Origin: a virus
Taxonomy: Duplodnaviria > Caudoviricetes
Strand: one strand, 5' to 3'
IMG/VR virus record: IMGVR_UViG_3300013121_000046
DNA: 64,000 nucleotides
The notes below the pieces were generated by a model that saw nothing but the letters and a program-made list of their open reading frames with translations, searched no databases and was not told the origin of the DNA. Shown here piece after piece: positions 13,892 to 31,684 of the stretch. The number at the start of each line of letters is the position of its first letter. Position 1 is the first letter of the stretch. A program made the translations under genes and the position numbers.

Positions 13892-15337
13892 CTAATCCAC
13901 ACTCACACCCAGTCGATTCCAAAAATTCGTATTATTAGACCTTGTAAAACTATCCTCCAACTGAATACTCCCAGTATCCCAGTCCTTTGTAAACTCACTA
14001 ACCTCTCGATATCGCACAAAGAGAGCCTGCAACTGAGCGGCACTTAACTCTGTAGCATATGCGGAAACTCTACGAAAGATTTCTTGATGCTCAGAATCCT
14101 CCGAATCCACATAGAAATTTCTAATCATGGTCAGCAAAGATTCTCCCTGAGGAGGAAGCATAGCCAACCTAAAATCGCACCGCCCAGGCCTAATTAAAGC
14201 AGCATCCAGACGCTCAGGATAATTCGTGGTCATAATCAGGACACGACCCTCGGTAGCCACCACCCCATCCAGGGCATTCAAAAAAGCTGCAAGAGAAACA
14301 AACTGAGACCCTGACCCCACCTCCTGGGCTAATATCTCCCCCTCATCCGTAAAACCACTAAACTCTTCCTCCGAATGATTAGCCTCTACTCGTTTTCGAT
14401 CTCCATACAAACAATCTATGTCCTCAATCAAAAGGACCGCATTCACCGCCACATTCGACATTAGGTCCAAGAGGGCGGCTTCTGCCTTGACACTACTCAG
14501 AGGGAGAACATAAACCGGCCGCTTAAAATGCGAGGCAATGGCCAAGGCGAGACTCGATTTCCCATTTCCTGGGGGGCCATGTAACAGATAACCTCGACGA
14601 TACGGAATACCCAAATTCTGGTACCAATCCTTTTGGTTAAAGAAAGTCTCTAGATCTCTGACTAAATGGTCCTTATCCTCTTTAGGCATAACCACTGACT
14701 CCAATCGCCGCTCCGGAGTTTCCCTAAGGACCTGCCACCGATTTCCATAAGCCAAAAATACCGGAACAGTTCTCCCCATAGAGTGGGGCCTAAACTGAGT
14801 TAAATTAGACACAAATTCCTTAAAGTGGGCTCTTGACAGACCAAAACTCTTAATGTTAACACTCTTTCGCCGAGAGCCACTATTACCCTCCGGGGTTTCT
14901 TCCACCAGAGTAATCAACAAAGGTCGCTTTTTATACCAAAGGAGATGCCATCCCCAAGAGGGGACTAAACAAATCTTAGGCTCCAATTCCAGATCAGAAT
15001 CATCCATGTAGTTAGTATTCTGCGCAAACTCTTGTGCTATATTGCAGAATTTATCCCTACTAAACTGAGTGACCGTTAAATATCTCCGGGCTCTCTTCGC
15101 TGTATAAGGGTGCTCCGCCAACCAAATGCACATCCAACCAAACGAAGCATCATACTCATAGAGAGTAGCCTCGAAAGAAATCCTAGAGACAAACCAACGG
15201 TACAATTCTCCTGGAAACTTTCTCAGGGAAGCCAGAATCACCCCCAAGAACCCAAGCATCGCCCCCCCAGTGAAGAAGGCGTTACTCTTTAGGGCTACCG
15301 TAGCCTCATTCACCAACGGGGATAGTATTTCCCACAT
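13892..15337 (-). CDS. BCS1-like AAA+ ATPase with N-terminal TM helix
   Basis: TM segment FFTGGAMLGFLGVIL, BCS1_N-like GWHLLWYKKR, GIPYRRGYLLHGPPGNGKSS, LLIEDID, LNALDG, TTNYPERLDAALIRPGRCD. Confidence 0.9.
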   Translation of the reverse strand: MWEILSPLVNEATVALKSNAFFTGGAMLGFLGVILASLRKFPGELYRWFVSRISFEATLYEYDASFGWMCIWLAEHPYTAKRARRYLTVTQFSRDKFCNIAQEFAQNTNYMDDSDLELEPKICLVPSWGWHLLWYKKRPLLITLVEETPEGNSGSRRKSVNIKSFGLSRAHFKEFVSNLTQFRPHSMGRTVPVFLAYGNRWQVLRETPERRLESVVMPKEDKDHLVRDLETFFNQKDWYQNLGIPYRRGYLLHGPPGNGKSSLALAIASHFKRPVYVLPLSSVKAEAALLDLMSNVAVNAVLLIEDIDCLYGDRKRVEANHSEEEFSGFTDEGEILAQEVGSGSQFVSLAAFLNALDGVVATEGRVLIMTTNYPERLDAALIRPGRCDFRLAMLPPQGESLLTMIRNFYVDSEDSEHQEIFRRVSAYATELSAAQLQALFVRYREVSEFTKDWDTGSIQLEDSFTRSNNTNFWNRLGVSVD

Positions 15338-15378: not shown

Positions 15379-15452
15379 TGAGCAATGAGGGACTCGAACC
15401 CCCGACCCCCACGGTGTAAACGTGGTGCTCTAACCAACTGAGCTAATCGCTC
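15379..15452 (-). tRNA. trnV: tRNA-Val(TAC)
   Basis: Cloverleaf GAGCGAT..TAGCTCAGTTGGTTAGAGC..CCACG-TTTACAC-CGTGG..GGTTCGAGTCC..ATTGCTC-A. Confidence 0.93.
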
Positions 15453-15493
15453 GATTCTTACTCTGCTCTTCTGCGTTATTCCCTACTAAGATA

Positions 15494-15727
15494 CTATCCT
15501 CGCCGGGGGGTTCCCCAGAAATTCTGTTCGTAATCTTCGACCTCCCACTGTTCTCGCTTCTGGATTTCTTGGCCCTGCCGAAAAATCCGATTCTCGATAG
15601 ACCCGGGTGGGTACGGGTTATTGGCCCGGGGGTGGTCTTTCCCCTCCTGACAAATACGGTCAAAATACCGCTCATTCTCCGTCAGATAGATAGAGCCACC
15701 CCGAGTATTGACGATGCGCCGACTCAT
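15494..15727 (-). CDS. hypothetical protein
   Basis: 77-aa ORF with GGAGGG RBS. Confidence 0.65.
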   Translation of the reverse strand: MSRRIVNTRGGSIYLTENERYFDRICQEGKDHPRANNPYPPGSIENRIFRQGQEIQKREQWEVEDYEQNFWGTPRRG

Positions 15728-15782
15728 CTTTCCCTCCCTGCGTGACTCGAACAGACCAGCGATTTCGGATTGTTGCCCAACT

Positions 15783-16010
15783 TCACACCGGCAAAGTTTC
15801 CGAGACAGACAGCTTCAGACTGAACTTGTCCGTCTCCGCTCCGTCCCGGTAAAAAGCCATGACTCCGTTCAGATAATCCACAAAGATGGACTCAACCTTC
15901 TCTCCCACCGGATATGGCCCTACCGGCTGTACCAAGGTGCAGCCGTAGAACTGATACCCACCCTCCCCCATGTCATCCCACCGTTCCCAGTCGAAAAGTT
16001 GCTTCTCCAT
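15783..16010 (-). CDS. hypothetical protein
   Basis: 75-aa ORF after promoter motif at 16062-16075. Confidence 0.65.
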   Translation of the reverse strand: MEKQLFDWERWDDMGEGGYQFYGCTLVQPVGPYPVGEKVESIFVDYLNGVMAFYRDGAETDKFSLKLSVSETLPV

Positions 16011-16165
16011 TTAATGAACCCCCAAGTTTGTGACCAAAGTTTGAATTCTCCCCGTTAAGGTGCTATACCCCAAAATAAACCTGGTTTGAAGAAGCTTTGT
16101 CAAAAATCCATAGGAATCACTAACACCTTTTTCAAAGATACGTATTTAGGCAACTCACAACTATA

Positions 16166-16318
16166 CTACGGCTTTCTCCCAAGGATCGGAGGTTTCTTCC
16201 TCCGCTGATCGGAAAGAACAAACCAATGATAAAGAACCCAAGAGAGTCCTGCGGTGAGTATCAGGGACACAATTGAGCAAAGCACAATCAAAAACAGCGC
16301 CATAAGTATCTCAGCCAT
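16166..16318 (-). CDS. small membrane protein (50 aa, not in ORF track)
   Basis: MAEILMALFLIVLCSIVSLILTAGLSWVLYHWFVLSDQRRKKPP...; GAGG RBS. Confidence 0.6.
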   Translation of the reverse strand: MAEILMALFLIVLCSIVSLILTAGLSWVLYHWFVLSDQRRKKPPILGRKP

Positions 16319-16320
16319 AA

Positions 16321-16758
16321 TCACACCTCTTCTTTGGTACAACTCCTGCCTACTACCTTAAAATACTCCTCCGGAGTGACGGAGACAAAAGCCTTAGCCG
16401 GATCAGATTGCTTGCCGAAAACCAAGTAGACATTAGACGGCTTAATATTACGCTTGTCCAGTAACTCCCGCATCTCGGTAATATTGGTAGCATAGGCGAC
16501 AAACTTGGCATCGACGGTAAAAGCAAAAACACCCGAATATGGGGCCACCAAGTCTGACACGTATTCGGATGGTCGGGCTCTTGCTCCAGTGTATTTGCCT
16601 TCCTCTTGAAAATCCTTCTCAGTCATTCGAGAAGAGCCCCTATCTGATCGCAACTGCAAATTATGACTCTCTCGTACCTGTGCATACACAATGAGATAAA
16701 TACCTAAGCTGAGTGACAGACCGATTCCGAATAAAAAAATTGTCAGACCTAAGAACAT
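16321..16758 (-). CDS. membrane-anchored hypothetical protein
   Basis: N-terminal hydrophobic helix; GGGAG RBS. Confidence 0.7.
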   Translation of the reverse strand: MFLGLTIFLFGIGLSLSLGIYLIVYAQVRESHNLQLRSDRGSSRMTEKDFQEEGKYTGARARPSEYVSDLVAPYSGVFAFTVDAKFVAYATNITEMRELLDKRNIKPSNVYLVFGKQSDPAKAFVSVTPEEYFKVVGRSCTKEEV

Positions 16759-16786
16759 ATGGCTTGCTCCCTAGATTATTTCAATA

Positions 16787-17059
16787 CTATCTGTCTTTCT
16801 TATCACCCCCAACAAAAAACTTCAAAATGTCGAGTATCATGCTCAGAATAGACAAAAAACTGCATATTACTACCACCACCCCAAGGTACACACACGCAGC
16901 AAAAAAGATTGAATAGCTTAAGATAAAGCCTAAAAACAGCAGGTTCTCAAAGCCTATTCTATAGCACCCCCAAGAGACGAGGCATATGACCACAGACCCA
17001 AACACCACACTTATCGTCGTCCAGAATTCTGACCGCATTCTTTCTTTATAATCCGGCAT
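16787..17059 (-). CDS. small membrane protein (2 TM)
   Basis: Two long hydrophobic segments. Confidence 0.7.
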   Translation of the reverse strand: MPDYKERMRSEFWTTISVVFGSVVICLVSWGCYRIGFENLLFLGFILSYSIFFAACVYLGVVVVICSFLSILSMILDILKFFVGGDKKDR

Positions 17060-17120
17060 ATTTTCCCTTTAACGCAACGACTACCCCGGATTAAGAATCG
17101 CCCCTATATACTGTATACCC

Positions 17121-17177
17121 AAAAAAAATCCCCACCAGGTTTCAAACTCCTAGAAGAGTCCTAAACCTGGTGGGGAT
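17121..17177 (-). terminator. intrinsic terminator-like hairpin
   Basis: 15-bp arms ATCCCCACCAGGTTT/AAACCTGGTGGGGAT plus T8 on minus strand. Confidence 0.8.
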
Positions 17178-17179
17178 CA

Positions 17180-17867
17180 AAAAAAGAATGGGCGGCTTTA
17201 GTTGGTTAGTCCGCCCGAGGGTGAAGTACTCCTTTCGGGAGTACCCTACACCGGTGTTTCAAGCCGTTCACCCTCTTGGTCCCTGTTATTGGATTTTAGG
17301 TCCGGGTAACAGCACCCAATTCAGGTTGGTCGCTTCTGACCTTAAACAATCGAAGCCGCTAAACTCCATTGCCATTAGTCAGGTGTCTTTTGCTTCGGGG
17401 GGAAGCGTCCAACACCTCTCTTTCGAGACTCTGCCTGACCTTTCGACCTGACAGATTAGACCCCTTCACAACTCAACCTGTGTACTTTGCCGTAGTAAAC
17501 GGCTTCCCCCAAACTACTATTTAGTATATAGTAATGGAGATTTCAAGTCTCCTCGTCAACCTAAACGCTCGATAAGTACAAATCCGAACGTCCCATAGCA
17601 GAATTCCCTAATTGACGTTAGGTATCTTGCACAGGGCTAACAGCAGGTTATACTCGCGTCACCGAGATTTACCCTGCACCGTAAGCAATCTTGTAAGAGT
17701 GGCTTAACACCCAACCCTTCGTTTCGGGGCTGTCCAAGATTCAGGCTTTACTCTATCCCCTCTAGGAGGGGCAACTTGGGTAGGTTGTTCCCAAAGTCGT
17801 TTTTTCGCCCGAGCACTAGGGGCGATTGGGAAGCATCCAAACTCTTTCGAGTATTGTCTGCTTCCCA
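17180..17867 (-). ncRNA. large highly structured non-coding RNA (~690 nt), GOLLD/ROOL-like size and context, family unassigned
   Basis: Own promoter motif at 17874-17887, terminal hairpin + U run, about 20 stems, several GAAA tetraloops, loop-loop complementarities; no credible ORF. Confidence 0.75.
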
Positions 17868-17873
17868 TGAACT

Positions 17874-17887
17874 AGTATACCCCAAAA
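17874..17887 (-). promoter_or_regulatory. TTTTGGGGTATACT promoter-like motif
   Basis: -10-like TATACT ~7 nt upstream of the first hairpin of the large RNA. Confidence 0.65.
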
Positions 17888-17926
17888 GATCACCTCCGTA
17901 GACCAAAAAAGGCCGAAAATTTTTTA

Positions 17927-18637
17927 CTAGCACAGCAGTTGAACTAACTCCCATATCCTATTGAGGTTACGACAATAAACCTCCGGATGAATCGCTTTCA
18001 GGTTATCCTGTGCAGTATGGATCCTAATTTTGCTCTGCGAACACCCATCCACAATCACAGTGGGAATATTGTGGTAACTAAAAACCAAACCATCACTGGG
18101 GCATCCCCAATACCTGGAACGAGGATCAGATAAACCCAAAGATATCCCCCATTCTTCTGGAAAATACTGAACAGCCAAATCTCCGCAGCCTAAACATTCC
18201 AAGTCTAAATTACAGAAAATTGTCTTCCGAATCTCAGGATCATCCAAATACTGTCTAGCTCCCCATCTCCCTTGTTCCTCTTGGGGAAACGAAACCAATC
18301 GGATATCTCTACGCGGAGCCCAGTCCCGAAGCTTCGACCATACTGCGGTCAAAGCAACTACTGAACTCCAATTATCCACGATCCCTTGACTAGGGGTACC
18401 CACGTAATCGTGATGGGCAGAAACTACCAAAGACTTTAACTCCGGGACTTTCCCAGGGAAAACCACCTCGATTATTGATCCACCATCCCGATCCTTCGCA
18501 CATTTAGTAACCGAGGGGGTTACCCCTAAGGATTCCCAGAAATCTATGAGGGCCCCTTGTCGGTAAAAAAGTGAGGCATCACTCGGCAGAGTCAGCCTAG
18601 GCAAAATCGTTTGGTAGTAGTCTTCCAGGGTTAGCAT
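17927..18637 (-). CDS. M28 family metallopeptidase
   Basis: SAHHD, GIVDNWSSV, QEEQG, NLDLE, SD, IHTAQD motifs. Confidence 0.85.
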   Translation of the reverse strand: MLTLEDYYQTILPRLTLPSDASLFYRQGALIDFWESLGVTPSVTKCAKDRDGGSIIEVVFPGKVPELKSLVVSAHHDYVGTPSQGIVDNWSSVVALTAVWSKLRDWAPRRDIRLVSFPQEEQGRWGARQYLDDPEIRKTIFCNLDLECLGCGDLAVQYFPEEWGISLGLSDPRSRYWGCPSDGLVFSYHNIPTVIVDGCSQSKIRIHTAQDNLKAIHPEVYCRNLNRIWELVQLLC

Positions 18638-19190
18638 TTGGCAGCAAAGTTCCTAAAAAATCCAAGATATGCAAATTTGCCTCAGGTAACCAGTTATGAC
18701 CTCCCGGGGGGAGCATAACAAACTTCCCCTTAGGTCCCCACCACTTCGCTAGTACCTCTCCACCATTTTCTTTTGGTGGTACCAAAGGATCGTCTGGGCT
18801 GCCCAAGAATAGAGCCGGGGGGCGTAATTCTACCGGGGTTTCTGGCATCTTTTCCGCCGCAGAATACTGCCCAGCGTACACAACTAAACCATCAATAGGT
18901 AGTCTAGCCAAGACTCGCTCAATCCCAATCCGCATAGCCATGTTAGCCCCAGCGGAGAAACCTAACGCTACCTTAGGAAGGAAACCCTCACACATTTGCT
19001 CGAATTTAGCCACGGTAGAGTGGACTGGCCAAGCCTCTGAGGCCCCAAAAAAATTCCAGAATCTCCAAGCAGATTTAGCAAACACCAATTCCCAGTCAGA
19101 GCCCTGTAAGGCCAGGTCCAATTGCGAATGTATTCGCAACAATCTAGCCGAACCACCCAACCCATGATAAGCCACCACACATCCACTCAT
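18597..19190 (-). CDS. alpha/beta hydrolase (esterase-like)
   Basis: YHGLGG oxyanion motif, GFSAG nucleophile elbow, DDPLV, GGHNW. Confidence 0.85.
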   Translation of the reverse strand: MSGCVVAYHGLGGSARLLRIHSQLDLALQGSDWELVFAKSAWRFWNFFGASEAWPVHSTVAKFEQMCEGFLPKVALGFSAGANMAMRIGIERVLARLPIDGLVVYAGQYSAAEKMPETPVELRPPALFLGSPDDPLVPPKENGGEVLAKWWGPKGKFVMLPPGGHNWLPEANLHILDFLGTLLPNANPGRLLPNDFA

Positions 19191-19369
19191 TCTGGAATCT
19201 CCCTATCCCCAGATACGGGTAAATCCAGAGCCAACGTTTCCAAATGCTCCACCAGTTTTCTAACATCCTCATAAATTGGTGCCTTGGAGAAGTTGTAGTC
19301 TCCCAGAATGCTATCTCCCAGGTAGTCCGTAAGATGCTCAAGTAGGGCAAAATAGGAAGAAAATCGCAT
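19187..19369 (-). CDS. hypothetical protein
   Basis: 60 aa, ATGA overlap with downstream gene, GGGGG RBS. Confidence 0.55.
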   Translation of the reverse strand: MRFSSYFALLEHLTDYLGDSILGDYNFSKAPIYEDVRKLVEHLETLALDLPVSGDREIPE

Positions 19370-19398
19370 AGAACACCCCCCAAATTAAAACTGGTTCC

Positions 19399-19659
19399 CT
19401 ACTCAATCTCAACCAAATAGGGCAAAATTTGCTTGTACTTTCGGAGACAGCTTTCGCCTACGGGAAAATAGCCCATATCCCCAGCAGGATCCATTACAGT
19501 CGCTTCCTCTTTCGTGACGATGCTACTCCCCCCATTGTGTACCCGAACCCATCGCATAGTGGTATTAGCCGTAGCCTTACCACAAATCAAACAAGGGGTG
19601 TAGCCTTCCGGACAGGTCGCATTGTGCTTATAGACAGCCGATCTAGGGACTGGCATCAT
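19399..19659 (-). CDS. small Zn-binding protein
   Basis: PCLICGK ... FPVGESC. Confidence 0.65.
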   Translation of the reverse strand: MMPVPRSAVYKHNATCPEGYTPCLICGKATANTTMRWVRVHNGGSSIVTKEEATVMDPAGDMGYFPVGESCLRKYKQILPYLVEIE

Positions 19660-20264
19660 TCCATGCTCTCCTCGACAGGAGTTTCCGCCTCATCCTCCGG
19701 AGGCAGAGCTTTGTACCGCCGTACCTCCACCTCCAGAAGTCGGTTAACCGCATCCAACTCAGCCTTGTACCGCTTCTGCGCCTCAAGAAGCCGAGTTAAA
19801 ATTCGAGCTTGCTGGTGCTTACTACGCATCCTAGGTGAGTACTTCTCAAACCTACTAGCTCGCTGCCCGGGAGTCTCTATATGCAAATCCCCGGATCTCC
19901 AATAAAAAAGAGATCCTACATCTTCTGGCTTTACCAGATAGTTTCCAGCCCCTAATCCCCCAATCGTATCCGAAACTCGTAAACCAATATCAGACTCCCG
20001 AATCTCATAGGGACTGATTTTGGTTTGTTTCGCCACATTTTCGAGGGTTGCTTTCTTCCCTAAGGCTCCACCTACCACTTCCTGCCTAGCATTTATCTCC
20101 GCAATAAATTTCTTCCCTACATCCGAGGGACCTACCACTCCTTTTTCTTGAATCTCACCCTGCTCAGTATAGGGTGGAAGGCTTAACCCAACGTCCTCTG
20201 GCTGAATAACATACAGTCGCGGAGAACCCAATTCCCTGATCCTATCTAGTAAAGACTCACTCAT
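19656..20264 (-). CDS. hypothetical protein with repeated Y.I..EDVG motifs and C-terminal coiled coil
   Basis: YVIQPEDVG / YEIRESDIG / YLVKPEDVG repeats; GGAG RBS before MSESLL. Confidence 0.7.
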   Translation of the reverse strand: MSESLLDRIRELGSPRLYVIQPEDVGLSLPPYTEQGEIQEKGVVGPSDVGKKFIAEINARQEVVGGALGKKATLENVAKQTKISPYEIRESDIGLRVSDTIGGLGAGNYLVKPEDVGSLFYWRSGDLHIETPGQRASRFEKYSPRMRSKHQQARILTRLLEAQKRYKAELDAVNRLLEVEVRRYKALPPEDEAETPVEESME

Positions 20265-20478
20265 AGTTAGGACTCCAGAAAATAGGCCCATTTACTGGGC
20301 AATGTCAAATAGGGGCACTCTTGGTAAATTCGGTACATTACTGCTAACCCTTCTGAAGACAGATTAGCCTGACTTTGCATCACTTCCCACAATAATCGCA
20401 AAGATTCTTGCGATAACCCCATACAAATGGGGGGTTCTTGAGTCAAAAGAACATCGCTAGCCATGAGGGTACCTCCCG

Positions 20479-21387
20479 TTAGTCCAGGCTCAAGGCCAAA
20501 GACCGCCAATCGGTTCCAGTAGCTCGCGTGTACTGCAACAAGGACTTGATATGCACCAAAAGACGCAAACTTAAGTCCCGAACGTTGTCAGCGTTCAAAT
20601 GGAGAAACTCAATCACCTCCTTTTGGGTGTCTTCCGTCTCCCCCTTAAGCATCTTGGGCACAAGCCCCACAATTCTCTCCAAAATCTCCTCCCGAGTTGA
20701 TCCAATCACCACCGTAAGGGCTCGACTCAGGACCGCCTTCAAGTGCGGAGACTCAATCTTCTCCCGCTCCAAGTTGGAGATGAAGATAACTTGGCCCCGA
20801 AAAATAAACTCCGGAACCTCGACAGCCGCCGAGCTAGACCGCCAAGCCACCTTGCGTTCCGGATATGTGTCCAATACCGATTTAAGAACATTCAAACCAG
20901 TCTGATCCTTCAACACTCCGTCACAATCGTCGAAAATGACCAGACTATGACGATGCTCATACAGAGCATTGTACAGCCCTAGGCTGGTAGCATGACCTTG
21001 GATAATGTGGTAGTCATACCCCTCCGTCTTATTGGCACGACTCAGCACCTCTCGCACCGTATAGGTCTTGCCGGTACCGCCGGGGCCTGCCACAAACAGA
21101 GAGTTGGAAAAACCAGCCGCCACAACCTGGGTAAGGTGGGCAAGATTTTCAAACTGTGTGTCCACCGGAAGACGAGACTTGGCCGAAGTCGCCTTCCCCG
21201 AGGTTTCAACCTCCGGGGTAAGAACCTTACCCCCCGGAAGCACAACCTGCTCCGAACAAACCTGCACCGTATGTGACGGCACATGAAAAATGGTCCCGTC
21301 CTCCGCGATCAATGAGGTGTTGAACTTGGCCTTACGACGAATCTGATACACACCTTCCTGTCCGATCACCTTGGCAAAACGAGACAT
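20479..21387 (-). CDS. AAA-family P-loop ATPase
   Basis: Walker A GPGGTGKT, Walker B LVIFDD, sensor IFISN, LSR; GAGG RBS. Confidence 0.85.
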   Translation of the reverse strand: MSRFAKVIGQEGVYQIRRKAKFNTSLIAEDGTIFHVPSHTVQVCSEQVVLPGGKVLTPEVETSGKATSAKSRLPVDTQFENLAHLTQVVAAGFSNSLFVAGPGGTGKTYTVREVLSRANKTEGYDYHIIQGHATSLGLYNALYEHRHSLVIFDDCDGVLKDQTGLNVLKSVLDTYPERKVAWRSSSAAVEVPEFIFRGQVIFISNLEREKIESPHLKAVLSRALTVVIGSTREEILERIVGLVPKMLKGETEDTQKEVIEFLHLNADNVRDLSLRLLVHIKSLLQYTRATGTDWRSLALSLD

Positions 21388-21401
21388 TTTAGTGTTCCTC
21401 G

Positions 21402-21448
21402 TATTTAGAATTCTGAAGACACTGAAGTATACCTCAGAATTCTAAATA
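21402..21448. promoter_or_regulatory. 15-bp perfect inverted repeat enclosing a -10-like GGTATACT
   Basis: TATTTAGAATTCTGA-N17-TCAGAATTCTAAATA. Confidence 0.7.
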
Positions 21449-21645
21449 GGAGGGAAAAAAACCCGAAAAATGGAAAAATAGTACAAAAAAAGCAAAAAAA
21501 CCGATATTTAGGCTACCTAGGTTACCTAGATTACCCAAAATAAAAACTACCCCATTCAAGCTCCCCCTTATACCCCCTATTTAGGGATATCAGAGTAGCC
21601 TGAATGGGGTAGTGAAGGTAACTGGCCCGTGTAAAACTTGGTATT

Positions 21646-22224
21646 CTAATCCTCAAACGGATTATCGAACGCTCGAACATACCCCTCCCGCTCAACCTGA
21701 CCCTGGGAACGCAATCGAGCAGCCCAATCCACAAGGTACTGGCGAGTAGTCACGTTAAGCTCCCCAGTACCTGGAGCAGTTTGGGACAGGGCAAAGTTGT
21801 ACCAATCGTCCAAATCTTTAGCCATGAACCCCTTACTGACCAAAAAATCATACCCCCGCTGCTGGTACTCCATATAAGCCAACTCGGCTCCCGAGGGGGC
21901 TCCCTCTTTAGATTCTTTGCGTTCCTTAGAAGACTCGTCCGAATCCTCTTCAGAATCCTCGTCAGAATCCTTTTTGGATTTCCCACTAACCGCTTCGTAA
22001 ACATCCTCCTCTAGGATGGAGGATACTCGATTTGATTCCTGAACCTCCCCAGAAACATCGAAATCCGGATACTGCTGAGCCCAGTAACCAAAGGAACCCA
22101 AGATAACCTGAACCACATGCTTCTCCCAGCCCTCGACTGTACTCTCCAGGACTGCTGCCGGAGAAGAAGTGTCGATGGGAAAAGTCTCCTTAACCTCTGC
22201 TGATTTTTCTTCCTCAGACATCAC
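21646..22224 (-). CDS. acidic hypothetical protein
   Basis: 192 aa, DSDEDSEEDSDE 12-bp repeats; GGAGG RBS. Confidence 0.75.
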   Translation of the reverse strand: MMSEEEKSAEVKETFPIDTSSPAAVLESTVEGWEKHVVQVILGSFGYWAQQYPDFDVSGEVQESNRVSSILEEDVYEAVSGKSKKDSDEDSEEDSDESSKERKESKEGAPSGAELAYMEYQQRGYDFLVSKGFMAKDLDDWYNFALSQTAPGTGELNVTTRQYLVDWAARLRSQGQVEREGYVRAFDNPFED

Positions 22225-22292
22225 AAACTTCCTCCAAACTCTAAAAACCGCATTTGTAGTAAAAAACCCTCAAATCAGTATCAGTACAACAG

Positions 22293-22366
22293 TGGGTAGG
22301 GCCTGAGTCGAACAGGCGCTGACTCGGTTTTTCAGGCCGACGCTCTACCGTCTGAGCTACCTACCC
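22293..22366 (-). tRNA. trnF: tRNA-Phe(GAA)
   Basis: GGGTAGG acceptor, GCTC/GAGC D-arm, anticodon loop CTGAAAA, GCCTG-TTCGACT-CAGGC T-arm; one C.A mismatch in the anticodon stem. Confidence 0.88.
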
Positions 22367-22594
22367 ACTATGATATACCCCAAAAATTTTATCTGGGACC
22401 TTTTTTCCCTTTCCAAGTTTTTGTACCCTTCGGATAACTACAAACCGGCTTCTTCTTTACTCCGATACTCTGTTGAACCAACAATCGCTGATAAATTAGG
22501 GCACCTAACTTTGGACCTAAAAGACTGCTCATTGCAAAACCTTACCCGAGAGGTAGTTAAGTCACTATACCCCTTGGTAAACACCTAATCAAAC

Positions 22595-22639
22595 AAAAGA
22601 GCCTGTTAGGGCCTAAAACTTTCCCTAACAGGCTCTTTT
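22595..22639 (-). terminator. intrinsic terminator (possibly bidirectional)
   Basis: AAAAGAGCCTGTTAGGG/CCCTAACAGGCTCTTTT. Confidence 0.85.
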
Positions 22640-22675
22640 AGATTATCACAAAGAAGCACCCACGCTCAAAACAAT

Positions 22676-23200
22676 TTACTCCTCACCAACCGTAGTAATC
22701 CCCAAGACACCGGTAGGATTAACCGGAGCAAAGGTATCCAACAGCACACCAGAGGCAGTCAGAGGCGTATCTGAGGGATTTCCGGCATCATCCACCCAGA
22801 CAAAGGACAGATCGACTGTGGAATTCTGCTCGCCAGACAAGCCCTCAACAACAGTTTGATCCTTCTGAGTGGAGATCACCGACTCTTGGTCCCCATTCTT
22901 CAGTGTGAGTTGACCACCAGCAATTTCAGCAGCGTCCGATTCCTTCTCAGGCAAAGCCGGGAGATTCACCACGTACTTAATTCCCATTTCAGATTCTCCA
23001 ACACAAGTGAGAGATAGCCCATTTTTTGGATTAGGGAGTCTACAAACAGCTTGGGCTATACGATGTATCTGTTTATAGACACCAACGAGGAGCAAATTTT
23101 GATACCGAAGTATGCGAATTTGCTCATCTAGTCTATCCAGAAATCTTCGCTCCTGAATAGATGGTTGATTAAAACTACGAAAAAAGGAAAAAAGACCCAA
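22676..23200 (-). CDS. FN3/Ig-like domain protein (paralog of 58571-59005)
   Basis: LSFVWVDDAGNPS...LLDTFAP; TTG start after GGAGG; second in-frame RBS+ATG at 22987. Confidence 0.7.
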   Translation of the reverse strand: MGLFSFFRSFNQPSIQERRFLDRLDEQIRILRYQNLLLVGVYKQIHRIAQAVCRLPNPKNGLSLTCVGESEMGIKYVVNLPALPEKESDAAEIAGGQLTLKNGDQESVISTQKDQTVVEGLSGEQNSTVDLSFVWVDDAGNPSDTPLTASGVLLDTFAPVNPTGVLGITTVGEE

Positions 23201-23204
23201 AGTC

Positions 23205-23408
23205 TTATCCCTCCAAAAGAGATACCCAAACAGCTTTGGGCCCTCGTTCTGAGGGCTCACATTCATACTCCACTTCATCCCCCTCCTGGAGAGCGTCAAA
23301 CTCAGAGTTTTTCACAATAGAAGCGTGAAAAAATATATCCTTTTGACCTTCAGCCCGGATGAAACCAAAACCTCGATCTGCTACAAGCTTTTTCACAGTA
23401 CCAGTCAC
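23205..23408 (-). CDS. cold-shock domain protein
   Basis: GTVKK..DRGFGFI (RNP1), DIFFH (RNP2), LQEGDEVEY, RGPKA; GTG start. Confidence 0.93.
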   Translation of the reverse strand: MTGTVKKLVADRGFGFIRAEGQKDIFFHASIVKNSEFDALQEGDEVEYECEPSERGPKAVWVSLLEG

Positions 23409-23643
23409 TCCGCACACCCTTTCAATTAAGGTCAATCATCCTTGAAAATAAACTTCCTACGATTACAAAGTCTGTTGTACTGCTGCCAGAGACTGGATGT
23501 GGGTTACTGGCAAACCGAAATCGAAGTAGAATTTTTCTAGTATACCCACAGAATCACTGAAAACACTAAATCAGTTTTACCGACTACAGCGAATGGACTC
23601 TCATTCACGGATTATACATACTTTGATTTATCTGCCTCTACTC

Positions 23644-23916
23644 CTACTCCCCATCATCTCCTAAATCATCAAATTCCTTGCGTATTTGATCTATAGAAAC
23701 TTCCTTACAGCTATCCCAAGGACTTGTAAATCTTGGGGGCCATCGGTGTTGCATATACTTTTTAAGTTGTGCAAGTTTAGCCTTCATACCGGAAATAAAT
23801 TCCTGAGAAGCCTCATCATCACAGCCTGCATAGGCAGCTATTAACCCTTCAATATCCTGAACTGCATGGGGGAGGGCCCATTGAAGCAAATCACTAACAG
23901 ACATTTTGGAATTCAT
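23644..23916 (-). CDS. hypothetical protein
   Basis: 90-aa ORF. Confidence 0.6.
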   Translation of the reverse strand: MNSKMSVSDLLQWALPHAVQDIEGLIAAYAGCDDEASQEFISGMKAKLAQLKKYMQHRWPPRFTSPWDSCKEVSIDQIRKEFDDLGDDGE

Positions 23917-24052
23917 TTAAGGCTGCCTATCTTCAATGATAGACTCTGCCTCAAGGTCGAAGAGAGTCTTGGTCAGTCTCCGGAGAAAGAGCTTATCTCT
24001 ATCCGCTCTTACACTAAACGGCCACCATTTCTTGAGGAAAAAGCTCAAAATG

Positions 24053-24255
24053 CTACCCTCCAATCAAAGAGACATAGGTCGCCTTAGGACCCTGCTCCAA
24101 GACTTGCATCTCGTACTCCACCGTATCTCCTACTTGAATGGAATCAAATTCCGCATTTTTAACCGCTGAGGCGTGGAAAAAATATCCTTTTAATTCTCCG
24201 CCCGAATGAACCCGAAACCACGATCTGATACCAGCTTCTTTACCGTACCAGTCAC
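24053..24255 (-). pseudogene. second cold-shock domain gene split by TAA (24190-24192) and a -1 frame change
   Basis: Frame 1 VTGTVKKLVSDRGFGFIRAEN*; frame 2 FFHASAVKNAEFDSIQVGDTVEYE...GPKA. Confidence 0.85.
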
Positions 24256-24307
24256 TCAACACCTTACTTTCAGAAAAAGATTCATCCATGAAAAAACTAT
24301 CCCAAAC

Positions 24308-24841
24308 TTAAATTGTCTGCATTATCATGGCTGGCTGTTTAATTTCTGCTGAAAAGCCAAAATCCTGGCAAAATTGCACCAAAGAAGCCAAGGAATCAGA
24401 CCAGAGAGTTAATTCAAGGGCGCCCCCGGCTTGATACGGTGATTCATTCACCCAGTATACGAAGTCCTGCTCCGCATCATTTCCCACTGGGGCAAATCCC
24501 GTACAATACACCGTAGCCCCTTGTCGCTCGACGGCAATAGCCTCCCCCATAACGCGCCAAGAAGATCCGGGGACATAACACGGGAAGTCATCCCCAGGCG
24601 ATCTAGGGCAGTCATCTTCTGGAATATCCCCAGAGATTGCTTCCTCTAAACGAAGAAGGCCGGGAGGTTTATTTGGCTCGCCTCCCCAAACTTTTGTTTT
24701 ACAACCAACAGATATCCCCCGAGTTGATCGACCCATTTTAAGCGGCCCCCTCCAACAAACCCCAACCCAATCGGGGGGTAGTAGCCGGGGCACCTCGCTG
24801 GGATGGCGGCAATAGATCGTATTGCCGTGGTCGAATGTCAA
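24308..24841 (-). CDS. hypothetical protein
   Basis: C-term NES...GG...LT.W......QFC.DFG shared with 25060-25278. Confidence 0.6.
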   Translation of the reverse strand: MTFDHGNTIYCRHPSEVPRLLPPDWVGVCWRGPLKMGRSTRGISVGCKTKVWGGEPNKPPGLLRLEEAISGDIPEDDCPRSPGDDFPCYVPGSSWRVMGEAIAVERQGATVYCTGFAPVGNDAEQDFVYWVNESPYQAGGALELTLWSDSLASLVQFCQDFGFSAEIKQPAMIMQTI

Positions 24842-25059
24842 TTTCAGCTAACGCTTCCGCCGCCTCAAGGGATCGCTCGAAGGCCTCACGATCAATCAAT
24901 GAATTGTTCTCAATAATTTTTTGATCTATCCCCAAACCCATCCCCCCCTTTAATCGCACTGCTTCCGCACCCAACTTAATGCTAGCTGGAACAATGGCAC
25001 TAATCCAAGAGTAACCCATAACCACATCCCCAGAACTGATGCCTATTTTAGCTGGACCC

Positions 25060-25278
25060 TTAAAGGGTCTGCCGGATAGATGCTGGACTCTGTATTTGAG
25101 ATTTATCGAGGCCAAAATCCGCACAGAACTGTTCCAAATTCTCTCGGGATTCAGCCCAATAAGTCAGTACAATATCTCCACCCGCCGCAAAGTCCGACTC
25201 ATTAAGTCGATATACGCTCTGGCCGGAAATTTTCCTCTCTAACATAACCACTACCACAGTATCGTCATTTTCCCCCAT
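25060..25278 (-). CDS. hypothetical protein, paralog of the 24308-24841 C-terminus
   Basis: YRLNESDFAAGGDIVLTYWAESRENLEQFCADFG. Confidence 0.6.
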   Translation of the reverse strand: MGENDDTVVVVMLERKISGQSVYRLNESDFAAGGDIVLTYWAESRENLEQFCADFGLDKSQIQSPASIRQTL

Positions 25279-25521
25279 TATGTGGGTTAACTCCGTTACC
25301 TCCCAAGAAGACTCTGCTACAGGTATCGGTAACTGTGGCTCCCGCTCCTTCCCACACCTCTCCCAAAAGCAACTCCAGGTTAACTATCTTTTCCGGTGCC
25401 GGAAAATCTTTAATTTCCCAGTATACACCGGAAAAAACTACTATCTTTGCCGACACCTGGATACCCCTCGTTCGCGTCCCCCATTTTATTCTTCCTGTCG
25501 CTGTCTATTTCTATTTTTCAG

Positions 25522-25879
25522 TGGAGGTGGCGGGAGTCGAACCCGCGTCTTGAAATAGTATCAATACTTGGCGTCTACGTGTGTGTCTCTGGGTCTATTT
25601 TCATTCTGGGTAGTGGGGCTCAGAGCGAAGCCGCCACTACCCCTATCTGGCTGTATCTCGACCCCCTAAAGTGCCAGCATACGGGGGATCACACCGAATT
25701 TAGCAACCAATTTTTGAACCCCTTCGGTTGGAGTCCGCAATTGGGACCGCCCAATCACTTAGGCAGCCAGAGCAAAAGTCTCAGCATCTGACGTTTGGTC
25801 GGCTTTTTACGTGGCCCGCTGACCAACCACGACACGCAACCAAATACTCTCACTATTCAATCGAAACCATTTCACCCCC
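25522..25879 (-). ncRNA. ssrA: tmRNA (one-piece), tag (A)AETFALAA
   Basis: 5' GGGGGTGAAATGGTTTCGA; 3' GACGCGGGTTCGACTCCCGCCACCTCCA with G3.U70 pair; tag ORF GCT GAG ACT TTT GCT CTG GCT GCC TAA at 25785-25759. Confidence 0.95.
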
Positions 25880-26152
25880 TAAAGCCGGTGAAGTACAGAA
25901 TGTGTAGTTTTTTCAGAATACCTTAGTCTAACCCCCGTCAACCCATTCCAGATCAACTGAGGTTTAATATCCCTTGTTGGGAAAACCCCAACCCCATAAA
26001 CATCAACTCCGCACTTCAAAAAAATATGACTACCTCTCCCTGGTATTACTGGTATTAAAAACCATCTGGGAGACAACAAAAGTAACAACAAAAGCAACAA
26101 GAAAAGCAACAATATCCATTCTTCACCTAGTTTCAGTAAAAAAATAATACAA

Positions 26153-26227
26153 TCGGGGCTGAGAGATTTGAACTCCCGACCCCCTGCTCCCAAAGCAGGT
26201 GATCTAGCCAAGCTGAGCTAAGCCCCG
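26153..26227 (-). tRNA. trnP: tRNA-Pro(TGG)
   Basis: CGGGGCT acceptor, CCTGC-TTTGGGA-GCAGG anticodon arm, GTTCAAATC T-loop. Confidence 0.93.
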
Positions 26228-26289
26228 ACAGACAAACCAAACGCGAGAGCCTCCCACCCTATTTACCTCAAAAATTTCAGTTGTGCAAA

Positions 26290-26916
26290 CTAAACTTTTC
26301 CGGCTACAAATCTCTGGTCATCATCCTCATCGTAGTCTTCATCATAGTCCGTTTCCGGACTTTTAAGCCCCAAATCCTCAGGAATCAATTCTTTCAAAAC
26401 CGATAAGTCCCAAGGATTGACTTGCTCATGGTCATCAAAGACCCACTTAGTCCCTGCTCCCAAAGGGGGTAAGGAAAACTCCCTGATTATAGACCTAATC
26501 GCCGTAGATTCTACCATCGGGGCATCATTTCCATGATAAATATTGTAACCTTTTGACAGAGGGATGGCTACTCGACCCCTTGGAAGAGCCGAATAGTGCC
26601 CAGACAATCTGCCCATCTGCGGCCCCCAAATTTCTTTCAGCATAGGGACTACAGATACCTCCCAAACATGCTGATGGAGACTATTCCCATCTGAATCAAA
26701 ATACGACCAAATATCCCAGAGTATCTGAGTATCTGAACCCTTACCCTTTCGACTGGGAACCCAGTAGAAGGCTCCTGTCTTTGGTCTGCCCGCCTTACGG
26801 GTCTTCCCTCGATGCTGCTTAGCTCTACGCGCAGCCTCCTGCATGTACGCTCCCCAATCTGCCTCATTACTGGAAAAAAATTCCACTGGTGTATTTTTCA
26901 TTTTTGTTGTCGCCAA
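26290..26916 (-). CDS. hypothetical protein (YWVP/PRGR family)
   Basis: GAFYWVP, HQHVW, YSALPRGRV, FDDHE; paralog of 30347-31210. Confidence 0.75.
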   Translation of the reverse strand: MATTKMKNTPVEFFSSNEADWGAYMQEAARRAKQHRGKTRKAGRPKTGAFYWVPSRKGKGSDTQILWDIWSYFDSDGNSLHQHVWEVSVVPMLKEIWGPQMGRLSGHYSALPRGRVAIPLSKGYNIYHGNDAPMVESTAIRSIIREFSLPPLGAGTKWVFDDHEQVNPWDLSVLKELIPEDLGLKSPETDYDEDYDEDDDQRFVAGKV

Positions 26917-29900
26917 ATACTGTTAGGGGCGGTCAACCCTGAAACTGTAATAGGGACTAAACTAGGCGAATTCCTTGGATACTTTAACCCTCTAGTCCCT
27001 GGGAGGGCAGGTAGCTGCACAGAAAAACTCACATCTCCCGTCTGCCTAATCCATACCCCAAAAGGACTAGCCGAATCCTCCGTCAAAACACTCCCCTGAG
27101 GAAACACCAGGGTATTACCATCACAAGTCATCACGGCTGCCGGAGAATAACTTACCACATGTGGAACCACTGGATCTGACAAATCTCGGGCTTCTCCCGC
27201 CGGTTGAAAGGTCAATCTCAGTATCCTTTTCCCCCCACCAGCCATGCCTGACAGGATATAGCGAGTCCCCCATCTATGTATATACTCAGATATTTGGGGG
27301 ATTGGGGCCATTCCCTGGTTTTCTGTTAAACTTGCCACCTCCGAAATAGCGTCATATATAGTTTTACTGGATAAAAAGTGATCCTCATCCCCCTGTACCC
27401 AAAGCTGAAGAAACTCCCCCTGCAAAAAAGTATGGAAAACTATCTCAGCTAACCATCCAGGAGAATCTTTCCAAAGCCAGGCCCAAGAAAGATTTGTGAT
27501 CGTACTCAAATTCGTTGAACCCGCGTCCGGTACCAACGTACCCCTCGAATAGGTGATACCCCCCGAAAAAGCTTGAAACTCCTGCGGGGACTCCAAATAA
27601 AGGTACGCTGCGGTAGTAGAAGTAGCCCGAGAAAGGAGGTTCTGCGAGGCTGCCCCCCTAGTTGGAGAGTATGGCTCTTGGTAAATTATCCTGTCCACAA
27701 AGTTGGTATAGCTCCAACTCCCACCAGAAGTGTAGCTACCGTTACCGGTACTACCTACCAATCGAAAATTATCAGCGTCTACCTTCGTAATTCGCCAGGA
27801 ACCGTTTGCCGCAGTATTACCCCCAACACCAGATATAACAACAGTCATACCACTAAACAAACCATGCGCAGCACTAGTAATCTGAATTGGGGAGGCATTA
27901 GTCGCCCCACTAATACTGCCTGTTATCGTCGCAGGAACATTGTACTCCACACTCTCGACAACAAACATATTAACATAACTGGCCGTGATGTTTCCAGAAA
28001 CATTCCCATCGAAAATTACGTGGACTTCTCCAGTGTACCAATTTATACTCCCAGGCTCAGCCACATCTCCCTCAAAGATACCAGCACCAGTATCAGAGGC
28101 TGTCTTTCCCCCTACCGTCAAAGACAGTCTTGTGGATGCCGCACCTACTTCAGACCCGGGATATATGGGCAAATCCGGCAATGTAAATGTGTACTCCGCC
28201 CCACCATTCGCCACCTCCACAACCTTACTCACCGTGGAAGACGCAAAACTAGCTCCATAAGATCCTGACGGAATAATCCTAATCATATCCCCAGTTTGGT
28301 AGCCAATAGCCCCTAAGTCATTTCCGGAGGCATAGGCAATCCCGGAGAGAGCCGATTCCGCTTGTCGAAAGATATCAACTGTAACTTTACCTTGGGCTGT
28401 GCGAGAAAGACTTCTAATTTTCAATTCAGATCTTGGGTAGGTACAACGTCTTGTAGAGCTTAAAGGTACTGTCCGATTATCCGAAAAAGCATTGGCTATA
28501 AAATCAATGTTATAGCCATAATTTCTAGGTTGGGATAAACTTCCGGAAGGACCATTCAAAGTAAAGAGATTAGCCTTCTTAAAAAATACATTGGGAGCAA
28601 TAGGAGAGGTGCTAGTATGAATAAGCTCATCAAAATTAGACCCCAATAGATTCATACCCACATAAACTTGCCAAGCGGAGAAAGTGGTTACATATCTAGA
28701 GGCCCTAGAATAGAACCCCAACACGGACTCAATGGCTAACTGCTGCGTACTAGACTGAGTAAAATTAGTAGTCGGGTTCTGAGAAAATTGATATTGGAGA
28801 TACCTACCACATACATCCTGAATACCCTGTTCGTTGTCCTGCCACAACTTAGAAGCCAATAAAACCGTATGAAAATTATCGGTTTGATTGGCCATTGCAG
28901 CCGCATCCGAGAGATACCTCCACTGCTCTTCTTCTTGAGTAGAGCTAATGATGGTCACAATTTTTTCATCAAATTCAGCATCTTGACTCACAGCATAATC
29001 ATGGAGTCGGTTAACCCAATCCCCAATTTGTCTTGTATGGTACTCTTTCAGATGTTCATAATTAGGTAGATGCAGATTCTGTCCTACCAAAACAGCCGAC
29101 ACCCCATTCCCTCCAGGCTCTCTTGTAAACGACCAATCTGACTCTCTTTGATCCTGATAGACATACCGATAGGCATTAGCGTCCGCTAATGTCGCGACTG
29201 AAGCTACCCCAGTCAGGGAAGAAATATTAACGTCTATTCTACGAAGTTGCTCAGCCCGCTCATATCTCCAGTTTTCTTCATCATCATTATAAAACATCAA
29301 GGTAAATGATCGAATTACCCCCGAGGATACAGTAATATCCCCAATCCAAACATGAGTCACATTACTGAGAGCCTCTACCGCATCGACAATTTGTTGAGCA
29401 GTAGCATTGTAGGGGATAGATGCAGTTGTCTGGGGATTACTGTTAGATACTGTCCGACCGTTATAAGGATCATACACCGTTAGGGTAAATGAACCCCCGG
29501 TGGGAGTGGCATTCCAAGTGAAAGAACGACAAGCTATCCGCACCCCGCCAAAACCCAAGGTTCCATATAGACCGCGACGATCCTCGGGTACCGCGATTAG
29601 AGTAGGATAAATATCCTCTACGGCTGGAAGAAGGTCCGCAGCCTCTGCGGCCATGTCAGCTATCCCATAACCAGCCTGCACCACATGCTCTCGCATGGGG
29701 TATATTTTTGGCATATGGACGATCTTTTCAGAGATATCATCAGCATATGCTAAAGTCTCAGCATTACTGTTAGCCCTTTCAGAGACACAGAAATAATTTC
29801 TATTATTATCGCTATGATCTGTGTCAAAAGCTACCGCAGCATCCCACCGCTCTTGAAGTGTTCCCCAACCTTCAGGAGGTGTTAAGCCAAAAAAATCACT

Positions 29901-30350
29901 TGAACGATTCAAAAAATGTGTCTGGAGAACCGCCATCAATCGTTCCCCATCAGATATCTGCGTCCCTAACCCATAACTCGAAAGAAAGCTTAAGTTCGGT
30001 ACCAATAAACAGGAATAAACCGGCTGAGCCGCTGAGTCCGGCTGCGAATTCATCCATGCAGGTTCAGTTCGTAAGATCAAACATAACCCTAAGATCCCTT
30101 CTCCTCGCAGTGTATTAACATCCAAGTTCTCAGAATGGTAGGTTGCAATCTCTGTACCCAATAGAGTAAGAAGCGAACTTCCTGAAGTATCTCCAACCAA
30201 ACTTGGGTATCCGGCTGTCGCCAAACTACTACCCGTCGCAGTATTGATATACCCGTAGGTAGACAGAAACTCACAAGTTTCCTGAGGAGCCATCAAATAC
30301 AAAAGGCCCCGTAAAGTCGGGGCCGTAACATCATAAGTTACTTCGGTCAT
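26898..30350 (-). CDS. large virion/tail-associated protein
   Basis: ~1150 aa; PTGGSFTLT...IPYNATAQQIVDAVEAL module and ISGATNASPIQITSAAHGL...ANGSWRIT module seen in phage tail and surface proteins. Confidence 0.7.
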   Translation of the reverse strand: MTEVTYDVTAPTLRGLLYLMAPQETCEFLSTYGYINTATGSSLATAGYPSLVGDTSGSSLLTLLGTEIATYHSENLDVNTLRGEGILGLCLILRTEPAWMNSQPDSAAQPVYSCLLVPNLSFLSSYGLGTQISDGERLMAVLQTHFLNRSSDFFGLTPPEGWGTLQERWDAAVAFDTDHSDNNRNYFCVSERANSNAETLAYADDISEKIVHMPKIYPMREHVVQAGYGIADMAAEAADLLPAVEDIYPTLIAVPEDRRGLYGTLGFGGVRIACRSFTWNATPTGGSFTLTVYDPYNGRTVSNSNPQTTASIPYNATAQQIVDAVEALSNVTHVWIGDITVSSGVIRSFTLMFYNDDEENWRYERAEQLRRIDVNISSLTGVASVATLADANAYRYVYQDQRESDWSFTREPGGNGVSAVLVGQNLHLPNYEHLKEYHTRQIGDWVNRLHDYAVSQDAEFDEKIVTIISSTQEEEQWRYLSDAAAMANQTDNFHTVLLASKLWQDNEQGIQDVCGRYLQYQFSQNPTTNFTQSSTQQLAIESVLGFYSRASRYVTTFSAWQVYVGMNLLGSNFDELIHTSTSPIAPNVFFKKANLFTLNGPSGSLSQPRNYGYNIDFIANAFSDNRTVPLSSTRRCTYPRSELKIRSLSRTAQGKVTVDIFRQAESALSGIAYASGNDLGAIGYQTGDMIRIIPSGSYGASFASSTVSKVVEVANGGAEYTFTLPDLPIYPGSEVGAASTRLSLTVGGKTASDTGAGIFEGDVAEPGSINWYTGEVHVIFDGNVSGNITASYVNMFVVESVEYNVPATITGSISGATNASPIQITSAAHGLFSGMTVVISGVGGNTAANGSWRITKVDADNFRLVGSTGNGSYTSGGSWSYTNFVDRIIYQEPYSPTRGAASQNLLSRATSTTAAYLYLESPQEFQAFSGGITYSRGTLVPDAGSTNLSTITNLSWAWLWKDSPGWLAEIVFHTFLQGEFLQLWVQGDEDHFLSSKTIYDAISEVASLTENQGMAPIPQISEYIHRWGTRYILSGMAGGGKRILRLTFQPAGEARDLSDPVVPHVVSYSPAAVMTCDGNTLVFPQGSVLTEDSASPFGVWIRQTGDVSFSVQLPALPGTRGLKYPRNSPSLVPITVSGLTAPNSIWRQQK

Positions 30351-31210: not shown

Positions 31211-31240
31211 AGGGGAAATCTCCGGCAAAAACCTATAAAG

Positions 31241-31313
31241 AGCTAACGGAGGGACTTGAACCCACAACCTACTGATTACAAATCAGTCGCTCTGCCAATT
31301 GAGCTACGCTAGC
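31241..31313 (-). tRNA. trnT: tRNA-Thr(TGT)
   Basis: GCTAGCG acceptor, ACTGA-TTTGTAA-TCAGT anticodon arm, GGTTCAAGTCC. Confidence 0.93.
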
Positions 31314-31379
31314 TTTAATTTTTCTCAGCGGGGTAACTACCCCAAGGGCAGACTGGCTGCTCCATCTGACGTGCCACAA

Positions 31380-31515
31380 TATCTTTTACATATCGGTACC
31401 CTACCCCATTCTTATGGGATATCTGCGAACCCCGATTCAATCATCTCCACCCGCCGGGCTTCTCGGACAATTGTAACAGGATTCTAGGCAAGTATCGCTT
31501 AGTATTCACAACAGA
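31380..31515 (-). ncRNA. candidate small structured RNA, copy B
   Basis: Shares TACTTGCC...AGAAGCCCGGCGGGTGGAGA core with copy A. Confidence 0.45.
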
Positions 31516-31595
31516 AAATTTATACAGTAGGTTGTTTTGCTAATCCATAAACACTACCCTCCTTATATCATCGACCAAACATTACCTCTAGATAC

Positions 31596-31629
31596 GAAAA
31601 CAGCCTGGTATAAACACCAGGCTGTTTTC
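31596..31629 (-). terminator. terminator-like hairpin between the two RNA copies
   Basis: 14-bp perfect arms GAAAACAGCCTGGT/ACCAGGCTGTTTTC. Confidence 0.75.
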
Positions 31630-31684
31630 AATGGTTTCATACTACCATCACGAACACTAACACTAACATTTAATTAATTTTTAT

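Follow-up and report, generated by a model that had tools for sequence, protein, structure and literature searches.

The candidate non-coding RNA is an ORF-free segment of ~685 nt on the minus strand (positions 17183-17868) of the window, by which is meant the whole 64-kb stretch of jumbo-phage DNA that was analysed. It is the longest stretch without an ORF in this otherwise tightly packed window, and its GC content is 0.49 for a window mean of 0.45. The upstream gene (17927-18637) encodes an M28 peptidase (Pfam PF04389) whose domain is complete (positions 8-190 of the 193 of the profile) and whose stop (17927) is followed, after 40 nt, by the promoter motif of the candidate. The downstream gene (16787-17059) has its own promoter copy and encodes a 90-aa protein for which an exact look-up returned no record; it was considered as a possible RNA-binding partner encoded next door and was rejected, as it is a hydrophobic membrane protein for which no informative look-alike was found. 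Genes for tRNA-Val, tRNA-Phe, tmRNA, tRNA-Pro and tRNA-Thr all lie within 15379-31313 (~16 kb). Measured from the candidate, tRNA-Val is located 1.7 kb downstream, and tRNA-Phe and the tmRNA 4.4 kb and 7.7 kb upstream, respectively. The tmRNA (25519-25879, minus strand) is complete and in one piece (Rfam 130 bits, E 1e-50), with the tag AETFALAA* according to ARAGORN, and it is adjoined by tRNA-Pro (26152-26228).

The source is an orphan jumbo phage of ~236 kb. All nine of the nine proteins looked up were singleton 90% clusters, seen on one 236,349-bp JGI/IMG contig. The phage genes include those for a UvsX/RecA-like recombinase, a Dda-like helicase, an SbcC-like protein and a BCS1-like AAA ATPase. 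For the genes surrounding the RNA (16321-19190, comprising a 145-aa gene, a 197-aa gene and the M28 peptidase), homologs were not detectable: the M28 peptidase had no relative in IMG/VR or among 5.8 billion protein clusters, the 197-aa gene matched only itself, and the 145-aa downstream gene gave just two weak partial matches (HMMER, 1.84 billion representatives). The neighbouring genes being orphans too, this region of the genome is considered as evolutionarily young or fast-evolving, and synteny with flanking genes that lack homologs therefore gives no route to homologs of the RNA. No close relative of the UvsX-like protein was found in IMG/VR. The BCS1-like ATPase (13892-15337, minus strand; BCS1_N and AAA domains, phrog_7485, 1e-79) is ~25-32% identical to proteins of many jumbo phages, including CcrColossus, CcrPW, SCTP-2 and Brevundimonas phages; its best matches among isolates come from Caulobacter and Brevundimonas jumbo phages (~30% identity), the highest identity among 1,940 metagenomic relatives is 36%, and the closest kin of nearby proteins are at ~35%. 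A homolog of this ATPase is labelled "major head protein" in Erythrobacter phage XM05 and Tunturiibacter phage Tunturi_5, which looks like a mis-annotation. A DUF6065 protein (45330-46217, minus strand; Pfam 1.6e-94) was, for its part, very strongly matched in Pfam, yet none of 50,697 phage records matched it in tblastn; its gene may be derived from the host, and hence be a clue to it.

No protein-coding gene was recognized in the candidate region. TAA, TAG and TGA are all present in each of the six frames of 17183-17868; the minus-strand frames contain 11-19 stops each, with a longest open stretch of 66 codons. Since no frame is free of any of the three stops, reassignment of a stop codon rescues no gene, and recoding was ruled out as an explanation. 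The small ORFs of the region were compared with Pfam and no family was matched.

The promoter motif TTTTGGGGTATACT, which combines a T-run, GGGG and a -10-like TATACT, is located at 17874-17887 on the minus strand, as had been described in an earlier sequence-only reading of this DNA. Searching the window for TTTGGGKTATAC with at most one mismatch gave nine matches, every one of them on the minus strand, where virtually all genes are encoded; 0.73 were expected, a 12-fold enrichment over the 64-kb window, and none of 100 shuffles reached nine. In the form TTTT(G/A)GGGTATA(C/T) the motif occurs only on the minus strand, at 1061, 9402, 13267, 16071, 17121, 17883, 22381 and 56850. The copies with an upstream T-run are intergenic and stand ahead of genes, one of them ahead of tRNA-Phe, and the other genes behind this motif have leaders with Shine-Dalgarno-like sequences. 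The tRNA-Phe copy (22381-22373) ends 7 nt ahead of the first tRNA base, so that tRNA-Phe may have little or no 5' leader; the distance from the T of TATA (22377) to the first base of tRNA-Phe (22366) is 11 nt. Transposed to the candidate, this offset would put the transcription start at 17868, and the usual -10-to-start spacing would put it at 17867, within a putative start site of 17866-17868 on the minus strand, 6-7 nt past the motif. The first predicted helix begins at 17867/17866. As the start derived from spacing coincides with the start of the helix, the foot of the 5' hairpin would form the very beginning of the RNA.

At its other end, the candidate is followed by two adjoining hairpins on the minus strand. 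The putative terminator 1 (17179-17216) comprises the terminal GGGCGG/CCGCCC stem (17216-17211 / 17195-17190) and the U-rich run that the sequence-only reading had pointed out, and both are present, with a pair probability of 1.00 for the stem; the length of ~685 nt is counted to this terminator and would be ~748 nt if it were read through. The putative terminator 2 (17121-17177) is a long hairpin of ~20 pairs followed by eight T, and its T-run also opens the next promoter-motif copy (TTTTTGGGTATAC, 17113-17125, minus strand), which serves the gene for the 90-aa membrane protein. From their sequence, the two hairpins are read as tandem intrinsic terminators, which would insulate the candidate from the next gene.

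Folding energy was compared with that of dinucleotide shuffles, a check proposed in the sequence-only reading and passed by the candidate in both tests performed. The MFE of the candidate was -247.6 kcal/mol, compared with -211.6 kcal/mol (sd 6.6) for the shuffles (z -5.4), and a second shuffle test on the 685-nt transcript gave z -6.4. Controls taken from the window comprised 11 coding windows as long as the candidate (z +1.0 to -3.7, mostly near 0), the window's own tmRNA (z -3.2) and eight other ORF-free gaps (z +0.6 to -4.3, minus strand), and the whole-length z of the candidate was the most extreme among the 20 regions tested in the window. The eight 150-nt sub-windows of the candidate were all negative, at -4.6 for the first and -0.5 to -2.5 for the others. 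The plus strand of the region reached a z of only -3.0; 31 of the 221 predicted pairs are G.U, and when the fold is mirrored onto the plus strand its energy worsens by 35 kcal/mol. Such a strand-specific fold with 31 G.U pairs argues for a minus-strand RNA and against a DNA element. GAAA tetraloops closed by a stem number three in the candidate and 33 on the whole 64-kb minus strand, an enrichment of ~8-fold. The folding of a single sequence, even when it differs significantly from shuffles, is not in itself evidence of a conserved functional structure (PMC8250186).

Three other regions of the window also gave negative values. A segment inside the AAA_16/phrog_1250 gene (20591-21275, minus strand; GC 0.53) had a z of -3.7, unusually strong for coding sequence, and this genome thus yields fairly negative z values without an RNA gene. 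An ORF-free segment upstream of tRNA-Thr (31320-31937) reached -4.3 on the minus strand and -5.0 on the plus strand, with no Rfam match at gathering score, and an ORF-free segment of 290 nt upstream of the tRNA-Phe promoter (22386-22675) reached -3.2 and -3.9 on the minus and plus strands, respectively.

The predicted fold of the candidate begins with a 5' domain of four consecutive hairpins (17757-17867; pair probabilities 0.82-0.99), of which the first (17827-17867) comprises 9+3+4 bp and a GAAA cap and is followed by hairpins at 17805-17825, 17772-17799 and 17757-17771. The central region (17489-17686) is predicted to form hairpins at 17636-17686, 17592-17635, 17565-17591, 17505-17540 and 17489-17503, with probabilities of 0.3-0.97, and nowhere is the fold less certain than in this central third. 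Next comes a closed multi-helix domain (17322-17480; 0.71-0.93), in which a 12-bp closing helix would surround four hairpins, two of them GAAA-capped. The 3' region (17220-17319) comprises a predicted hairpin at 17276-17319 and a GAGGGUGAA...UUCACCCUC element enclosing a 9-bp hairpin (17224-17246). All these features are on the minus strand, and the best-defined units are the 17757-17867 and 17322-17480 domains, the 9-bp hairpin at 17224-17246 and the terminator.

The helices listed in the sequence-only reading all exist in the sequence, and eight of the eleven are part of the MFE structure, most of them with probabilities of 0.73-1.00; the remaining three occur as alternatives only. In the partition function of the 685-nt RNA, the probabilities were 0.98 for the 5' hairpin, 0.96 for UCGCCC/GGGCGA, 0.99 for CCCCUC/GAGGGG, 0.97 for CUCG/CGAG, 0.73 for CAGGUUG/CAACCUG, 0.79 for UCUC-GAAA-GAGA, 0.90 for the GUACUCC hairpin and 1.00 for the terminator. 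Forcing AAUCUUG/CAAGAUU together with GAGGGUGAA/UUCACCCUC costs 0.7 kcal/mol, forcing CCUGUG/CACAGG costs 4.6 kcal/mol, and forcing all three costs 8 kcal/mol. The 5' strand of the GAGGGUGAA...UUCACCCUC element can instead pair with 17695-17711, and in the MFE structure 17695-17711 is paired with 17253-17275 through a long-range helix of 17 bp in three blocks. As these alternatives are 0.7 kcal/mol apart, the 3' region has two near-isoenergetic predicted states.

Three pseudoknots had also been proposed from the sequence, and their partner sequences do exist, but the loop matches are at chance level (P ~0.2). Among the 19 hairpin loops of the MFE structure, five have an exact Watson-Crick partner of at least 6 nt, compared with 3.4 (sd 1.4) in shuffles (P 0.20), and for partners of at least 7 nt P was 0.15. 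The tertiary loop contacts proposed for the candidate are thus at chance level. The CGUCAA loop, one of those invoked, sits in the central hairpin at 17592-17635. In the same segment, CCUAAC ... UAUGG (17622-17593) is one position off the consensus of the 11-nt GAAA tetraloop receptor, and it competes with a more stable local hairpin; this near-match is retained as a lead only. A repeat search identified a module of the shared form CUCGAAAGAG-N3/7-UUGGAYGCUUCCC in two copies inside the candidate on the minus strand, namely CUCGAAAGAG-N3-UUGGAUGCUUCCC at 17828-17851 and CUCGAAAGAG-N7-UUGGACGCUUCCC at 17400-17427. Either copy would be a possible pairing partner of the 5' strand GGGAAGC.

Known RNA families were searched using Rfam 15 and cmscan. 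With all 4227 families at gathering score, the window gave the tmRNA (130 bits) and four tRNAs, and nothing was matched at the candidate. At E<=10 with lax filters, on segments of 1201 nt and 688 nt, the matches at the candidate were noise only: miRNA models on the hairpin of terminator 2, bxd_3, MtlS and a 25-nt plant-virus pseudoknot. Terminator 2, matched only by miRNA-hairpin models, is a plain long hairpin. Models for GOLLD, ROOL, OLE, HEARO, group I and II introns and RNase P had no match at E<=10, in agreement with the absence of RNase P, group I and group II signatures noted earlier, and inspection by eye for RNase P CR-I and group II domain V motifs was negative too; a GGGUGAA stretch bears a resemblance, and no more than that, to the P10/11 region of RNase P. 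An intron was rejected, given the absence of an Rfam match and the presence of the candidate's own promoter and terminators; the domain of the upstream M28 peptidase is complete and there is no split host gene, so the candidate is not an intron. OLE and HEARO were likewise rejected, with no Rfam match and with an M28 peptidase and orphan proteins as neighbours instead of proteins of the IscB/OapA type. In the literature searched, no described RNA family was found to which the candidate could be assigned.

Homologs of the RNA were searched by sequence, by exact pattern and by structure model. Using blastn with 11-nt words, no match to the candidate was obtained in 50,697 phage records. Pattern scans were performed on IMG/VR, JGI metagenomes and GTDB genomes. 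A junction 18-mer returned nothing in IMG/VR; a 19-base gapped pattern returned four matches, all in GC-rich coding DNA; the internal duplicated module returned nothing in IMG/VR or the JGI metagenomes and one chance match in GTDB genomes, within a Labilibaculum MAG and in what appears to be coding DNA. With a junction-plus-GAAA pattern, 22 metagenome matches were obtained. Two covariance models were built from the single sequence, R1 (159 nt, the 17322-17480 domain) and R2 (111 nt), and none of the 22 matches scored with R1 at the site of the pattern. The two models revealed no paralog within the window, noise only in the five jumbo phages CcrPW, CcrColossus, Bajun, SCTP-2 and Tunturi_5 (best E 0.5 and 0.2), and nothing that rose above noise in three large records of IMG/VR. 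Scans for exact patterns and domain models built from a single sequence are of low sensitivity, and these searches, which are far from exhaustive, are to be read as "none found" only. The candidate was also considered as an antisense regulator of genes of the window, and this was rejected, as the longest complementarity (13 nt; one found, 0.65 expected) is that of chance.

Four other explanations were weighed against the same data. The one that deserves most attention, although we consider it unlikely, is a non-functional spacer or the remnant of a decayed gene between transcription units, in which a few strong hairpins and the base composition would give the fold signal. The concentration of the strongest local signal in the first 150 nt, the z of -3.7 reached by a coding window, the orphan state of the neighbouring genes and the lack of any conservation shown in the homolog searches are what such a spacer would look like; against it stand a dedicated promoter copy at the foot of the first helix with two terminators behind, in the longest ORF-free stretch of a tightly packed window, as well as a whole-length z that exceeds all others tested and a fold that is strongly strand-specific, and a gain of GAAA-capped hairpins is not expected of a decayed gene. 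The segment might instead belong to an mRNA, either as a leaderless 54-codon gene (or another small ORF) with a structured 3' UTR or as the 3' UTR of the M28 gene, and this we regard as improbable. An ATG at 17868-17866 does coincide with the start deduced from spacing, and a frame of 54 codons begins there (17704-17868), and there is no strong terminator between the M28 stop (17927) and the promoter motif; but the frame spans just the first 165 nt, through the most stable helices, which leaves ~520 nt unexplained, its 54-aa product has no Pfam match, and the other genes with the motif have Shine-Dalgarno-like leaders.

Membership in a known class, as a GOLLD, ROOL, OLE, HEARO, ORF-less group I or II intron or RNase P RNA so divergent that it lies beyond the Rfam models, is considered very improbable. 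Size, phage origin and proximity to tRNA genes are as in ROOL and GOLLD, and many GNRA loops are found as in introns and RNase P, but the 688-nt segment had no match at E<=10 even with lax filters, the negative inspection for CR-I and domain V speaks against RNase P and group II, and a complete M28 domain and the candidate's own promoter and terminators take the place of flanking exons. The suggestion made in the sequence-only reading of a divergent GOLLD/ROOL-type member accordingly finds no support, whereas its other suggestion, a new large phage non-coding RNA, fits the tests of frames, promoter, terminators, fold and tRNA/tmRNA context that were applied to this one sequence. Equally slight is the probability given to a DNA element such as a replication origin or a packaging or recombination site: an ORF-free stretch rich in inverted repeats would be in keeping with it, but the region contains neither iterons nor arrays of direct repeats, its only repeats being short two-copy matches, it is not AT-rich (GC 0.49, window 0.45), it is bracketed by a promoter and terminators, and its 31 G.U pairs favour one strand and are not needed in duplex DNA.

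The candidate is probably, at a modest level of confidence, a real stand-alone structured non-coding RNA gene of a new family. This interpretation is preferred because it brings together a promoter, tandem terminators, the absence of a reading frame, a strand-specific fold that is the strongest of the window, the enrichment of GAAA tetraloops and the tRNA/tmRNA setting. Such a gene would be transcribed on the minus strand from a phage promoter that shares its class with that of tRNA-Phe, giving one discrete and stable transcript of ~685 nt that would end at the tandem terminators. GAAA tetraloops and long-range helices could then hold together a compact architectural RNA, which may act as an RNA-only or RNA-protein particle, made during infection with the phage's set of tRNAs and tmRNA. 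It is possible, although we put it forward tentatively, that the candidate founds a new class of large ornate phage RNAs, with no relation in sequence or fold to GOLLD and ROOL and sharing with them a place in the tRNA/tmRNA region of a phage; it would fold into a large particle of RNA only, perhaps by self-assembly, or else be a new ribozyme acting on the phage RNA set. To our knowledge, only a handful of intricately folded bacterial and phage RNAs of >500 nt are known. Known as a singleton from an uncultured orphan phage, the candidate has boundaries and statistics that are unusually clean, and would offer a new target of ~0.7 kb for cryo-EM and structure prediction.

Several known RNAs can be compared with the candidate. 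The tmRNA of the same phage (25519-25879) is, like the candidate, structured and encoded on the same strand, and differs from it by a 130-bit family match, a tRNA-like domain and a tag reading frame, none of which the candidate has. The tRNA cluster of phage T4 contains stable RNAs, species 1 and 2, of ~140 nt, which have no assigned function and are processed from a tRNA precursor. The candidate resembles them as a phage-encoded RNA among phage tRNA genes, and differs from them in being about five times longer and in having its own promoter and terminators.

The closest parallels are the large phage RNAs. In phages and prophages, ROOL occurs as a large RNA of ~600 nt that stands alone and is densely structured; its size class and genomic setting match those of the candidate. 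The candidate did not match the Rfam ROOL model at any of the thresholds used, and nothing in its sequence or predicted fold points to a common helix topology, to conserved kissing loops or to oligomerization. Its hosts are mainly Firmicutes-type bacteria, whereas the phage of the candidate is an orphan from a metagenome. ROOL is often found near tRNA islands and has no known protein partner (PMC12286853). GOLLD is also a phage and prophage RNA near tRNA genes, with many members of >800 nt and an architecture rich in GNRA and A-minor elements (PMC12286853); the candidate is shorter, has no Rfam match to it, and the conserved 3' region of GOLLD is not detectable in it. Homo-oligomeric nanocages, stabilized by conserved kissing loops between molecules and by A-minor contacts, are characteristic of ROOL and GOLLD; the loop complementarities of the candidate are at chance level. 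Among the intricately folded bacterial and phage RNAs of >500 nt, each one solved (OLE, ROOL and GOLLD) turned out to have an unexpected quaternary architecture built of RNA only, and none has an established function yet (PMC12286853). An architectural mode of action, with the lifestyle of ROOL and GOLLD and without membership in either family, may be suggested for the candidate as the likeliest one, with low confidence. A further large RNA, unrelated to these and in the same genomic niche of a phage tRNA/tmRNA region, would suggest that phages reached such RNAs more than once, and would sharpen the question of what large RNAs do for a phage.
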